From assembly GCA_965205265.1 (NCBI GenBank), contig CBDBGH010000003.1, positions 4,352,001 to 4,416,000 of the forward strand: DNA of 64,000 nt, written 5' to 3'. The translations under genes were made by a program, and so were the position numbers. Below are positions 9,094 through 13,286 of the stretch, one piece after another; the first letter of the stretch is position 1; each line of letters opens with the position of its first letter. This DNA is from Alphaproteobacteria bacterium (GTDB lineage: Bacteria > Pseudomonadota > Alphaproteobacteria > Bin95). The notes below the pieces were generated by a model. The model was not told where the DNA came from, did no database searches, and saw nothing but the letters and a program-made list of their open reading frames with translations.

Positions 9094-9316
9094 CTATGCG
9101 GCGTGATTGTGCCGCTGGCTGTCCTGCCAGTTCCAGGGGAGGAGTTCGCCGAGCCGGCTCTGCGGCGTCTCTGCGATCCGGCGCAGGACATCGGCGAGCC
9201 AGGCCTGGGGGATCGACGTTGTTGAGCTTGGCGGTGCCGATGAGGGTATACATGGCTGCGGCGCGCCTGCCGCCGCGGTCGGAGCCGGCGAACAGCCACG
9301 CTTTGCGGCCGAGTGC
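9094..9316 (-). pseudogene. tnpC: IS66 tnpC C-terminal fragment
   Basis: ALGRKAWLFAGSDRGG..MYTLIGTAKLNNVDP, then a frameshift in the G5 run 9207-9211, then QAWLADVL..LLPWNW. Confidence 0.88.
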
Positions 9317-9801
9317 GATCGTGCATTCATTCTGCCCATGTCGGGCAGGACTGCGTCATCCATTACCCGTGGCATGCCCATTTCGGCCGCCGTGTCCGCC
9401 TTGAAGTTATCGAACAGCGTGCCGACGGCCTCATGGCCTCTGTCGAGGTAGAGCCCGGGCTGGTCATCAAGATTCCCGCCTGGTCGCTCGATCCTGCGTC
9501 ATGCGCCGGCATGGAGATCGGCGCGCCGCGTGTATCCCTGGCCGCTCTTGCCGCGCTTCACGAGGTTCTCGTCGGCCAGGGTTTTAGACGAAGCTCCTCC
9601 GCTGACGGGACGGTTAGTGAGGAGGAGCTCAATGAAGTCTTTGGCTGTACCGGCGAGGCCGCCGGGCGAGTTCCGACAGCTCAGCATGCTGTTGGACACA
9701 CCGGCGCTGCGTGGCCTGAACCGGGAGGAACGCGACGCGGTCGTGGGCGCGCTGGCCGGGCTGCTTCTGGAAGCGGCGGATTTCGCGGTGAAGGAGGATG
9801 A
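9313..9801 (+). CDS. Accessory ORF1 of the integrase element; native start lies across attP
   Basis: HSAH..IHYPWH..IPAWSLDPASC..PRVSLAALAAL; in frame with ATG 11891 after circularisation. Confidence 0.6.
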   Translation: MRSCIHSAHVGQDCVIHYPWHAHFGRRVRLEVIEQRADGLMASVEVEPGLVIKIPAWSLDPASCAGMEIGAPRVSLAALAALHEVLVGQGFRRSSSADGTVSEEELNEVFGCTGEAAGRVPTAQHAVGHTGAAWPEPGGTRRGRGRAGRAASGSGGFRGEGG

Positions 9802-9817
9802 CGATGAGCACCTCTGA
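9632..9817 (+). CDS. Accessory ORF2 (61 aa) overlapping the integrase start
   Basis: GAGGAGG RBS; RQLSMLLD..LNREERDAVVGALAGLLLEAA amphipathic helix. Confidence 0.6.
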   Translation: MKSLAVPARPPGEFRQLSMLLDTPALRGLNREERDAVVGALAGLLLEAADFAVKEDDDEHL

Positions 9818-11876
9818 TGCGTTGCCGCGATCGGTGTTGACGCGCAAGGCCGTGGTTTATGTCCGTCAGTCCACGCCCCAGCAGATGCGGAACAATCTCG
9901 AGAGCCAGCGCCGCCAATACGATCTCGTCAACGTGGCGCGCGGGCACGGTTTCGCCCGGGTTGAGGTCATCGACGAAGATCTGGGCCTGTCGGCGAGTGG
10001 CGCCATCGCACGGCCGGGTTTCGAGCGTCTCGTCGCCTGGCTGTGTGCCGGGGACGTCGGAGCGGTACTTTGCTTCGAGGCGTCTCGCATCTCCCGCAAC
10101 GGCCGGGACTGGCACCATCTGCTCGAGCTCTGCGGTCTCGTGGAGGCCCGCGTCATCGACCTGGATGGCATCTATGATCCTCGCCACCCAAACGACCGCT
10201 TGCTGCTCGGACTTAAGGGCCAGATCAGTGAGTTCGAACTCGGCGTTCTCCGCGCACGGATGCTCGACGCCGCCCGATCCAAGGCAGCGCGCGGCGAGCT
10301 TCGCATCAGCGTCCCGATCGGTTACGTGTGGCATCCCCAAGGCGGGCTGGGGCTGGATCCTGACATTCGGGTTCAGGAAGCGATCCGTCAGATATTCGCC
10401 CGATTTCGCGAGCTGGGCAGCGCGCGGCAGGTCCTGTTGACGCTGGTCGAGCAGCAGCATTGCTTCCCGCGCCCGTCAGATGGCAGGACAACGGTTAGCT
10501 TCGACTGGACGCCGATCCGCTATCGCAATGTGATTTCGGTATTGAAGAACCCCTTCTACGCTGGTGTCTATGCCTACGGCAAAAGCGAACAACGAACCGA
10601 GATCGTCGACGGGCGGGTGCACAAAAGCTATGGCCACCGGAGACCGATGGCGGAATGGGAGGTCATGCTGAAGGACCATCACGAGGGCTACATCGATTGG
10701 GCGGAGTTCGAGCGCAACCAGGCGCAACTCGCCGCCAACGCCTTCGGCTGGTCCGGCGGCGCGAAGTCCGGGCGCGGCGGACGGGCGCTGCTGAGCGGAC
10801 TTCTCAGCTGTGGGCGCTGCGGCCGCTCAATGTCAGTCGCCTATGCTGGGCAATCACCGGGCAATCCTGTTTATTTCTGCAACCGGCAACACCTCCAGCT
10901 CGGGCTCGATCGCTGTCTGAGGTTCGGCGGCGCGCGTGTGGATGCCGCCATTGCCGATGAGATCATCGGGGTCGTCGAGCCCTTGGCCGTGGAAGCCTCC
11001 TTGAAGGCCGAGCGGGTGAAGGTGGAGGGCCTGAGCGAACAACAGCGAGTGGCCGAGCTGGACCTGCAGCAAGCCCGCTACGAAGCATCACTCGCCGAGC
11101 GGCGCTATGCCGCCTGCGATCCGGACAACCGGTTGATTGCCGCCGAGCTGGAGAAGAGTTGGGAGGCGGCGCTTCGCCGCGTCCAGGTGTGCGAAGCGCG
11201 GCTGGAGGCAATGCGGTCGCCGTCACCGCAGCCCTCGGGACCGGATCTGGCCGGGCTTGCCGATGACCTGAAGGCAGCCTGGAACGCGCCGGGGGTGAGC
11301 ATGCGTGCCCGCCAGCGGCTCGTACGCACCCTGATCGCCGGCATCGTCGCCGATGTCGACGAGGAAGCGCGCGAAGTCCTGCTGACGATCCACTGGGTCG
11401 GTGGCCGCCATTCCCGATTGCGGGTTCGAAAGCCCAGAACCGGTGAACATGGCTGCCGAACGCCCGAGGAAGCGCTGGCGGTGATACGCAGCATGGCCGG
11501 GCGGTGGTCGGACGAACATATCGCTGCGTCTCTCAACCGGATGGGCATGCGGACCGGCCAGCACAAGAGCTGGACCGGCAAGCGGGTCGGATCGATCCGT
11601 CGCGTGAACGGGATCGACGGCTATCTCTCAGCGGACAAGCAGGGCGATTGGTACACCATGACCGAGGCGGCGAACGAGTTGGGCACCACCAGCCATACGC
11701 TCAGGCGCCTCATCGAGGATGGAACGCTACCCGCCACGCAGCTCGTTCCCCGAGCGCCTTGGCAGATCAGAGCCGCGGACCTCCATTCAGAGAGCGTTGC
11801 TCACGCCCTGGCACAAAGGAAAGGCCCGCGTCGCACTTCATGCCGGGATCAGATGTCAATGTTTTCAGATAGTTGA
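9798..11876 (+). CDS. Large serine recombinase with Zn ribbon and C-terminal excisionase-like HTH
   Basis: AVVYVRQST catalytic Ser, EASRISRN, LKNPFYAG, CGRCG..YFC..C, C-terminal YTMTEAANELGTTSHTLRRLIEDG. Confidence 0.92.
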   Translation: MTMSTSDALPRSVLTRKAVVYVRQSTPQQMRNNLESQRRQYDLVNVARGHGFARVEVIDEDLGLSASGAIARPGFERLVAWLCAGDVGAVLCFEASRISRNGRDWHHLLELCGLVEARVIDLDGIYDPRHPNDRLLLGLKGQISEFELGVLRARMLDAARSKAARGELRISVPIGYVWHPQGGLGLDPDIRVQEAIRQIFARFRELGSARQVLLTLVEQQHCFPRPSDGRTTVSFDWTPIRYRNVISVLKNPFYAGVYAYGKSEQRTEIVDGRVHKSYGHRRPMAEWEVMLKDHHEGYIDWAEFERNQAQLAANAFGWSGGAKSGRGGRALLSGLLSCGRCGRSMSVAYAGQSPGNPVYFCNRQHLQLGLDRCLRFGGARVDAAIADEIIGVVEPLAVEASLKAERVKVEGLSEQQRVAELDLQQARYEASLAERRYAACDPDNRLIAAELEKSWEAALRRVQVCEARLEAMRSPSPQPSGPDLAGLADDLKAAWNAPGVSMRARQRLVRTLIAGIVADVDEEAREVLLTIHWVGGRHSRLRVRKPRTGEHGCRTPEEALAVIRSMAGRWSDEHIAASLNRMGMRTGQHKSWTGKRVGSIRRVNGIDGYLSADKQGDWYTMTEAANELGTTSHTLRRLIEDGTLPATQLVPRAPWQIRAADLHSESVAHALAQRKGPRRTSCRDQMSMFSDS

Positions 11877-11904
11877 AGAGGGGGTGCAGAATGACTCCAT
11901 CGTC

Positions 11905-13286
11905 GCAATACCGCGCAGACAGCGCTCGGCGGCATTGTTCGAGAGGCAGATGCGCCCGTCGTCGAGGAAGCGGGCGAAGCGGTCCCATCGTCTGAGCATG
12001 TAGTCCATGGCCTTGGCGACGGGGGCATGGCGGGAGAGCCTGGCGCGTTCGGTCTTCATCCAGGTCTTGAGATCGGCGACGAGCGGCGCGCTCAGCTCCT
12101 GGCGGACGGCATGGCGCCGCGCGACGGTCTTGCCGTTGATGTCGCGCTTGATGTCGAACAGCAGGTCGATCCGCTTCACGGCTTCCATCGCCAGCGGCGA
12201 GATCGGCGGCGCGTTCCTGCGCCCCTTGCCGGCGGCAATGTCGGCGCGTTCGAAGAATTTGCGTCGACCATGCGCCCAACAGGGAACTTCGGTGACAGGC
12301 CCGGGCAGCCGCGTGGCCGCGTAGAGGCGGTTGTAGCCGGCGAAACTGTCGGCCTGGAGGATGCCGGCGAAGCTCTCCAGGTGCTCGACCGGATGATCGC
12401 CGGACCGGTTCCGCGAGTAGCGGAACAGGGCCGCCGGCGGGTCCGGACCGCCGAACGGCCGGTCGTCGCGGACATAGACCCAGGCCCGGCCCTTGTCGGT
12501 CTTGCCCCTGGCCAGCACCGGCACCGGCGTGTCGTCGCCATGCAGGCGTTCGGCCGCCATGACATGCGATGCGATCAGGTCGTGCAGCGGCCTCAGCGCC
12601 ACCGTGCAGGCGCCGACCTGGTCGGCCAGGGTCGACAGGCTGAGGTCGACGCCTTCGCGCGCGAAGCGGTCGCGCTGGCGGTTCAGCGGCTGGTGCTGCC
12701 CATACTTCTCGAAGACGATCGTCGCGAGCAGGTTGGGGCCCGCCCAGCCGCGCGGCGTCGGGTGGAACGGCGCCGGCGGCTGGCTGATCTTCTCGCAATC
12801 GCGGCATGTGAACTTCTCGCGCACCGTCTGGATCACCTTCCACTGGCGCGGAATGACCTCCAGCGTCTCGGTGACGTCCTCGCCGATCTTGGAGAGCTTC
12901 TGCGAGCCGCAGCATGCGCAGGCGTCCGGCGGCGTCACCACCACGCGCTCGCGCGGCAGATGCGCGGGGAACGGCTTGCGCCCGAACCGGCGGCGGCGGG
13001 TGAAGCCCTTGACCCGGGTCGCGCCGGCCGCCGCCTGTTCGGCCGCCAACTCGTCCTCGGTCGCGCTCGCCTCGAGCTCGTCTAGCTGGAGTTCCATCTG
13101 GTCGAGAAGCCGCTGCTTGCGCTCCGAACGCTGGCCGAAAAGCGCGCGGCGCAGCTTCTCGATCATCAGCTTCAGGGCGGCGATCTGCGCTTCGGCGTCG
13201 GATACCTGCGCCTCGGCGTTCGCGGCCCGGCTCTCGGCCGCCGCCAGCGCGGCCTTCAGCGCGTCGATCTCCGATCCGTCCGGCAT
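11905..13286 (-). pseudogene. tnpC: IS66 tnpC, main N-terminal part
   Basis: LFGQRSER, CACCG, LHGDDTPV, LQADSFAGY, CWAHGRRKF, NNAAERCLRGIA then break. Confidence 0.92.

Follow-up and report, generated by a model that had tools for sequence, protein, structure and literature searches.

A small serine-integrase element inside an IS66 transposase gene, and relatives that split other insertion-sequence genes

In a 64,000-nucleotide stretch of alphaproteobacterial DNA (the window; GenBank assembly GCA_965205265.1, contig CBDBGH010000003.1), a 2590-bp element encoding a large serine recombinase (LSR) sits inside tnpC, a transposase gene of an insertion sequence (IS) of the IS66 family. We think it likely that this is a small, recently active element whose attP recombines with a site in tnpC, inserting precisely and reversibly, and that it belongs to a clade whose attB sites lie in IS genes. 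Its anatomy and boundaries, its identical copies in different contexts, the conservation of its target and the pattern across its family can be read from the DNA; its activity we infer from the same comparisons. We propose that the LSR would recombine an imperfectly palindromic attP with a site inside IS66 tnpC, and that strand exchange at a 2-bp GC core within an Ala codon would give a duplication-free insertion that excision would reverse. Sub-clades of such mini-elements, each an LSR with a small open reading frame (ORF) that we call ORF1, would take different conserved codon stretches of IS genes as attB. Insertion sequences would make safe landing pads and vehicles because they are multicopy, plasmid-borne and dispensable.

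Read from its junctions, the element spans window positions 9317-11906, its 2590 bp counted with one GC, the right-hand one. The left junction runs flank-GC-element at 9315/9317 and the right one element-GC-flank at 11906/11907, and this GC dinucleotide (9315-9316 and 11905-11906) is the sole sequence common to both. On the minus strand, the N-terminal part of tnpC (11907..13286, 460 aa, from Pfam and the junction reading) terminates ...CLRGI, and the C-terminal part (9094..9316), read from 9316 down, starts ALGRK; the GC core therefore lies within the Ala codon of RGI|ALGRK. A preliminary description of this DNA had placed a 2590-bp element at the Ala codon of an RGIALGRK motif, and the junctions confirm both length and codon. 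The ends it gave, 9305 and 11915, each fall about 10 bp too far outward. The attP it reconstructed as symmetric about GC is borne out, for the half-sites it quoted are present and a 9-bp outer inverted repeat (GCAGAATGA / TCATTCTGC) stands 10 nt from the GC on each side. The site attL extends over approximately 9295..9345 (tnpC half-site, GC core 9315-9316, 10-nt inner arm, outer motif TCATTCTGC) and attR over approximately 11880..11930 (outer motif GCAGAATGA, 10-nt inner arm, GC core 11905-11906, tnpC half-site).

These boundaries recur in other data. A Logan unitig from run X15 has its ends exactly at 9315 and 11906. In L006, an uninterrupted paralogous tnpC, 53 nt span the joined flanks, equal to the window flanks with the element removed, and in reef metagenome contigs 9298 is bridged to 11922 by 33 nt, as many as the two flank stretches hold together. 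Lengths being equal in the empty paralogues, there is neither duplication nor deletion beyond the 2-bp core. The identical ends in five genome copies, the X15 unitig and the equal-length empty sites exceed chance. In the window copy, attL and attR have a 2-bp core in common and the target is not duplicated, the pattern of conservative exchange.

The genome (5.7 Mb, three contigs) holds five copies of the element with identical ends, matching at 2590 of 2590 bases; four are in tnpC and one is in darT. The hosts of the window copy (L001), L002 and L003 are IS66 variants whose right flanks are up to 2% apart, and L004 has on its right a flank of another IS66 type, with about 36% ungapped identity. 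L005 splits the darT toxin gene, leaving positions 1-78 and 83-201 of the Pfam DarT profile on opposite flanks. Identical copies in such differing surroundings have therefore moved recently. Targeting of a single tnpC codon, as first described, holds for four of the five copies but is not absolute, the fifth being sited in darT. The L005 locus (G000:C3:3806223-3811827, junctions at about 1515 and 4105) retains GGCCGAG before the GC core in its left half-site, and a Macro-domain (darG-like) gene lies downstream of the split darT. Among 36 DDE_Tnp_IS66 matches in the genome, truncation at profile position 268 is confined to the four occupied copies. Unoccupied IS66 copies differ at the site (...RPVVLTRKN, RPIALTRKN and RPIKLTAKN, with RPLALGRRSW in L006), so all cognate sites are taken, and a single near-cognate one, in darT, has been used as well.

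The flanks bear on a different account, in which the element is itself immobile and has spread only through composite IS66 transposition or recombination. The ends of its IS66 host are intact, and the flanks of the window copy and L002 match at 1299 of 1300 positions on the right and at 92.7% on the left. L004 likewise combines a type-A left flank with the right flank of a different IS66 type, and the chimeric flanks of these two tnpC-borne copies suggest exchange, by homologous recombination, between copies of the element. Passive spread is nonetheless very improbable: the five identical copies lie in IS66 variants 2% apart, in another IS66 type and in a gene, darT, that belongs to no IS, and the frames of the integrase, ORF1 and ORF2 are all intact. 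One IS66 has inserted in the tnpC of another at G000:C3:2324923-2333603, which puts L003 and L004 there head to head with about 200 bp between them.

Relatives of the integrase share the target. Pattern-based retrieval brought up 89%-identical integrases in another alphaproteobacterial metagenome-assembled genome (MAG), at the same tnpC codon of two different IS66 types (L009 and L010). A tblastn search of 72,556 plasmids (E <= 1e-60) returned 417 records, 138 of them at 60-80% identity; the plasmid carriers include Sinorhizobium, Rhizobium, Bradyrhizobium, Mesorhizobium, Agrobacterium, Azospirillum, Burkholderia, Paraburkholderia, Polaromonas, Variovorax, sphingomonads and others. Rhizobium johnstonii 3841 (pRL12) and Rhizorhabdus wittichii RW1 (pSWIT02) are examples of carriers in culture. 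We fetched 20 of the 138, and in 20 of 20 the C-part and N-part of tnpC directly flank the element at the same codon. Separately, L014, L028 and L035 show the C-part on the ORF1 side. The check proposed at the outset, that homologues should be flanked by tnpC split at this codon, thus came out positive for all 20 plasmid loci together with L009 and L010 (64-89% identity), and without duplications. Two further loci on one MAG contig (L012 and L013) carry an element 97-100% identical to the window's, fragmented about 13 kb apart by other insertions.

Cores were counted at the 26 loci where both ends are readable, which excludes L111, with its unreadable left end. Of these, 21 have GC/GC and one, L056, has GG/GG; its tnpC codon is Pro instead of Ala, and the core covaries with it. 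The element is inverted at the same codon in L051 and L112, which lie on different plasmids of a single Azospirillum strain and differ in their tnpC flanks. Studies of the Bxb1 and phiC31 central dinucleotides reportedly found that it alone sets the polarity of serine integrases, so a palindromic GC core would permit insertion in either orientation.

Beyond these, integrase relatives at 40-47% identity keep the same layout, with an ORF1 homologue, the integrase and, at the right end, a Shine-Dalgarno sequence and ATG (GTG in L017), while splitting quite different IS genes. The istB gene of IS21 is split at its Walker A motif, GP(S/P)G|xGKT, in L017, L018, L019, L040 and L068; the Pfam IstB_IS21 profile is divided 2-101 | 100-227 in L018, and the cores of this clade, read by eye, are GA and GG. 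IS66 tnpB is split antisense in L039 and sense in L067 (NCBIfam IS66_TnpB positions 6-42 on one flank), an IS110-family transposase in L041 and L042 (profile 1-89 | 89-153), an IS3-family rve/rve_3 transposase in L043 and L070, and an ISKra4 transposase in L024 (profile 277-384 | 383-411). L069 lies in IS66 tnpC again, at a site 11 codons further downstream and with a different core. The attBs of the clade would then comprise two sites in IS66 tnpC, IS66 tnpB, the IS21 istB Walker A motif and the IS110, IS3 and ISKra4 transposases. A quick IQ-TREE tree of 34 integrases, with four that have no assigned target gene as outgroup (L020, L021, L044 and L034, at 33-40% identity), gives the IS-targeting group a support of 100 in the Shimodaira-Hasegawa-like approximate likelihood ratio test (SH-aLRT) and resolves one clade per target, the main tnpC clade (100) being sister to the tnpB clade (93). 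L033 and L034 (G022) differ from the split-gene pattern: an integrase of about 724 aa, 35% identical, is followed by a same-orientation IS66 tnpC that starts near its residue 6. We reject an account of the element as an IS66 accessory gene, since it splits tnpC, is present in darT and has relatives in other IS families.

The element carries three reading frames, all on the plus strand: the body of ORF1, ORF2 and the LSR. The LSR starts at 9798 (692 aa) or 9804 (690 aa) and ends at 11876; Pfam recognizes Resolvase, Recombinase and Zn_ribbon_recom in it, followed at the C-terminus by HTH_17. Its catalytic resolvase domain (PF00239, E 8e-22) has an R21-x-S23 that is invariant in 15 aligned relatives, Ser23 being the nucleophile; the Recombinase (PF07508, E 4.5e-17) and zinc-ribbon (PF13408, E 2.8e-7) matches follow, and C336, C339, C359 and C371 of the ribbon are invariant among the same 15. 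An AlphaFold2 model pairs long helices at 394-437 and 443-471, a coiled coil over about 394-471, at a predicted local distance difference test score (pLDDT) of about 90. The protein has, in sum, the catalytic, Recombinase, zinc-ribbon and coiled-coil domains that define a large serine recombinase. Pfam finds no DUF4368 in it. Unusually for a serine integrase, residues 616-661 (window 11649-11786) form a DNA-binding domain of the HTH_17/excisionase family, matched by Pfam at E 1.9e-6 and by TIGR01764 at 29.1 bits, where the cut-off is 28.8. The family consensus keeps this domain. The best-scoring named NCBIfam model is XisF, far under its cut-off (87 versus 375 bits); the protein is no member of IS607, scoring 18.2 bits with NF033518 against a cut-off of 110. 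Two terminator-like sites, on the minus strand, were found in a scan of 9100-12100, no more than in shuffled sequence.

The preliminary description credited the element with an LSR and two small ORFs only. That inventory is right, but it understates the ORFs: ORF1 would lose its start on integration, and ORF2 resembles a directionality factor. The body of ORF1 (9319..9801, plus strand, weakly DUF5372-like) ends in a stop at 9799-9801 that overlaps the integrase ATG at 9798, and no start codon for it is conserved within the element. At the other end, directly after the integrase stop, come a purine-rich Shine-Dalgarno sequence (11877-11884) and an ATG (11891-11893; together 11877..11893, plus strand), conserved at 16 of 16 loci. 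This ATG sits inside the outer att motif and reads outward through the right end, and in all 16 it meets the ORF1 frame without a stop only across the attP joint. The frame is open to within 4 nt of the integrase start in 14 of the 16, with frameshifts in L010 and L058. The Shine-Dalgarno and ATG are kept also in the 40-47% relatives, whose flanking genes are unrelated. ORF1 may therefore be whole only in the excised circle that we propose, where its translation would be efficient because the start signals lie at the right end and the body at the left, although it may not be strictly circle-specific.

ORF1 is evidently a real coding sequence. A core of about 100 aa aligns over 22 sequences with Y16, H19, G23, W55 and P70 invariant, and among codon positions the third varies most (5953 differences versus 4276 and 3983). 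It was left unannotated in 11 of the first 12 plasmid loci that have annotation, and a word search of 5.8 billion indexed proteins found just 13 homologues. A profile search listed 3862 representative clusters; the motif is present in 110 of the best 150, and the N-termini of those 110 are ragged: 61 are long read-throughs and 14 start internally, while 24 come near the expected length and 11 are intermediate. Missing annotation, few word-search homologues and ragged N-termini fit a gene that is not called. The joint itself is found in nature, as circle or tandem, to judge by two assemblies: L059, a metagenome contig of 2391 nt, has the permuted order integrase tail, attP, ORF1, ORF2, integrase start, and P0009 (four members, contig of 2712 nt) has an ORF1 N-terminus of the joint type. 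The L059 copy is broken, with an IS5/IS1182-like transposase ORF (798-2159) within the 3' part of its integrase.

What ORF1 does cannot be assigned from its fold, a common one: the model is an SH3/KOW-like barrel with a helix (pLDDT 79), and its best matches in the VIA wide search are KOW, Tudor and SH3-like barrels (Z 6.7 at best). Foldseek gave no PDB match at E <= 1e-3, and PHROGs and NCBIfam none for the window ORF1. An Atlas feature search placed DUF5372 clusters first (0.94), with a recognition of 1754, under the 2300 reached by 91 of 100 known-family proteins. The DUF5372 profile, run against the element's own genome, gave one sub-threshold, unrelated match, and no paper found in a full-text literature search mentions DUF5372.

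ORF2 (9617..9817, plus strand) encodes 61 aa (ATG 9632, stop 9815-9817) and reads in the +1 frame within the tail of ORF1. It has its own strong Shine-Dalgarno (9617-9627), overlaps the first 14-20 nt of the integrase gene, and is conserved at each of the 14 main-clade loci examined. The Prokaryotic Genome Annotation Pipeline (PGAP) calls it a hypothetical protein in most plasmid loci, and it matches no family profile in Pfam, PHROGs or NCBIfam. Directionality factors are reported to act at the base of the coiled coil of serine integrases. The complex predicted for ORF2 with integrase residues 320-690 scored 0.76 in three of three runs by the interface measure ipSAE, a mark that 58 of 80 solved complexes attain, as do 2 of 110 mismatched pairs, and the best control scored 0.00; contacts agreed to at least 81% between runs, with a partner pLDDT of at least 56. 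These predicted contacts join ORF2 residues 24-50 to two stretches of the integrase, 390-406 and 479-537, that border the modelled coiled coil. The model supports binding of ORF2 at the coiled-coil base, and by this prediction ORF2 looks like a directionality factor.

From the geometry of the genes we propose a translational switch. In the integrated state ORF2 would be made with the integrase, bind the base of its coiled coil and act as directionality factor, favoring excision, and excision would yield a circle. There ribosomes on the completed ORF1 would override the ORF2 start and pass to the integrase start, and integrase made without ORF2 would favor integration. Whether the whole cargo-free clade consists of obligate IS parasites, with sub-clades on different IS motifs and this ORF1/ORF2 directionality switch built in, is a suggestion that we make only tentatively.

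A simpler scheme, like that of TnpX, would have the integrase excise and insert on its own, with ORF2 a regulator or in some other role, the right-end ATG part of a binding motif, and ORF1 translated from flank or non-canonical starts. The ATG does lie within the 9-bp outer repeat, with its mirror TCATTC on the other arm; flank ATGs are frequent in tnpC-antisense insertions; and the istB clade has no ORF2 of 45 aa or more. Against these stand the purine-rich Shine-Dalgarno, which precedes the ATG by 6-9 nt and is kept, outside the symmetric part, at 16 of 16 loci and in the 40-47% relatives, and the passing of the predicted binding test by ORF2 at the coiled-coil base. On balance we consider this scheme rather unlikely.

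Several observations weigh against our own reading. In-frame with ORF1, 8 codons upstream in the flank, there is often an ATG that arises from the antisense of tnpC K-S/A-W codons and is used by gene callers, so translation of ORF1 in the integrated state is possible; in the window copy a GTG at 9313 spans the junction. Up to E 1, Pfam has nothing that matches the window ORF1, and DUF5372 (PF17342) is matched by only 7 of the 22 aligned relatives, at best with E 1.1e-5. Scans for the attP pattern gave one real match among eight in metagenomes (L059) and none among four in viral data, the remainder being chance. In Logan contigs of four runs, no joint of right end to left end was seen as an excision product of the window copy, which cannot count against excision, and only diverged empty paralogues, never the empty site of this exact IS66. 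The scan of 9100-12100 found no sigma-70-like promoter. The ORF2 complex score may partly echo solved structures of integrases with directionality factors (SprA-SprB type, PDB 9dxd family). Cores are mismatched in 4 of the 26 loci, which are probably dead copies. Finally, 18 of the 20 plasmid loci share one orientation and both inverted ones come from one strain, a bias not expected from an unbiased palindromic core, though plasmid loci are not independent events.

The host IS66-family element occupies 9004..14219 on the minus strand, insert included, and measures 2626 bp without it. It has terminal repeats (GTAAGC.../...GCTTAC), Pfam matches to HTH_Tnp_1, TnpB_IS66, DDE_Tnp_IS66, LZ_Tnp_IS66 and zf-IS66, and the tnpA-tnpB-tnpC order of the family, with tnpB at 13358-13705 and tnpA at 13702-14124 (both minus strand, from Pfam) and DDE_Tnp_IS66 in tnpC; its 8-bp duplication was read by eye and not fully checked. 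Near 9207-9212 the tnpC C-part has one extra base relative to L002, in what is a G run on the plus strand. Contigs of runs X17, X19 and X1 have one base fewer at 9207 or 9212, and run X15 matches the window. Given this frameshift, excision from the window copy would not restore TnpC.

That point bears on the suggestion that the host genome, or IS66 itself, keeps the element as a reversible on/off control of IS66 transposition, so that it would be a domesticated switch, comparable to LSR elements that are excised in development, and not a selfish parasite. The insertion is precise and in frame, excision would rebuild tnpC, and every cognate IS66 copy in the genome is occupied. Yet the same element is also in darT, sister clades target five other IS genes as a selfish landing-pad strategy would, the window tnpC has its extra frameshift, and at the four loci with mismatched cores clean excision is impossible. 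We judge domestication improbable.

The surroundings are themselves nested. The host IS66 interrupts an IS5-family transposase gene, whose DUF4096 and DDE_Tnp_1 halves lie at 8549-9007 and 14253-14621, making a three-level nest of IS5, IS66 and integrase element. A second, unoccupied IS66 follows at 14741-17188 (tnpA 14741-15139, tnpB 15094-15489, tnpC 15404-17188), reading RPIALTRKN at the site. Upstream, at 3014-8251, is a 1745-aa ORF whose motifs resemble those of a TraA-type conjugative relaxase/helicase, so an integrated plasmid or conjugative element may account for this region.

If our preferred reading of a mobile LSR element with IS-gene targets is correct, these elements would form the first lineage described whose site-specific integrases are specialized on insertion-sequence genes, a parasitism layered on the commonest mobile DNA of bacteria, in which IS copies are silenced and could be restored. 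It would account for many of the pseudogenes and misjoined annotations entered as 'IS66 family transposase' on rhizobial, Burkholderia and sphingomonad plasmids. The family would also offer a compact natural panel of related integrases, each with its own well-defined target of 40-50 bp, a candidate directionality factor of 61 aa and, in the palindromic core, a case for studying the control of orientation. The gene split by attP would make a simple model of how a three-gene element distinguishes 'integrated' from 'excised'.

How does all this sit with what is known? LSR integrative elements are already known as a kind of element. Full-text literature searches, covering articles without their supplements, found no description of a serine recombinase element in IS66 or IS21 genes. 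The term 'IS66' is absent from the main text of Durrant et al. 2022, whose supplementary target tables may list IS transposases, and the accessible part of Khedkar et al. 2022 covers nesting in bulk only.

In its domain set, zinc ribbon, coiled coil and 2-bp crossover without duplication, the integrase is like those of phages and integrative and conjugative elements (phiC31, Bxb1, SPbeta SprA/SprB). Among solved structures, SPbeta YokA (SprA), deposited also as a fusion to YotN (SprB), is its nearest relative by sequence, at very low identity (E 2e-6, residues 64-344). Unlike those systems, the element has no cargo (2.6 kb as against tens of kb), its attB lies in the genes of other mobile elements, its core is palindromic and its integrase ends in an HTH_17 domain. 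The clostridial transposons Tn4451/Tn4453 (TnpX) and Tn5397 (TndX) are likewise small elements moved by an LSR via a circle. In Tn4451, as Lyras and Rood are said to have found in 2000, the circle joint creates an expression signal for the recombinase; of the systems compared, this comes nearest to a start codon supplied across attP. These transposons differ in having cargo, GA cores and relaxed target choice, and in rebuilding a promoter instead of a coding sequence. Durrant et al. 2022 places TndX-like enzymes in a multi-targeting, DUF4368-bearing clade.

The Bacillus skin element (SpoIVCA) and the cyanobacterial fdxN element (XisF) offer a precise in-frame interruption of a gene that excision rebuilds, but there the genes are the host's and inheritance is vertical, whereas here they are IS genes, in multiple copies and on plasmids of Alpha- and Betaproteobacteria. 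Helper-embedded satellites reportedly come from a tyrosine-integrase clade that repeatedly targets prophage late genes (PMC10111431). They too have an integrase clade specialized on the genes of another mobile element, but with tyrosine integrases, satellite cargo and prophage hosts. IS607 is similarly a minimal mobile element with a serine recombinase, though its enzymes are small, have an N-terminal HTH and show low target specificity. Set against all of these, what appears to be new here is the cargo-free size, a clade that has specialized as a whole on IS genes, a palindromic core together with insertion in both orientations, and an ORF1 split by attP.

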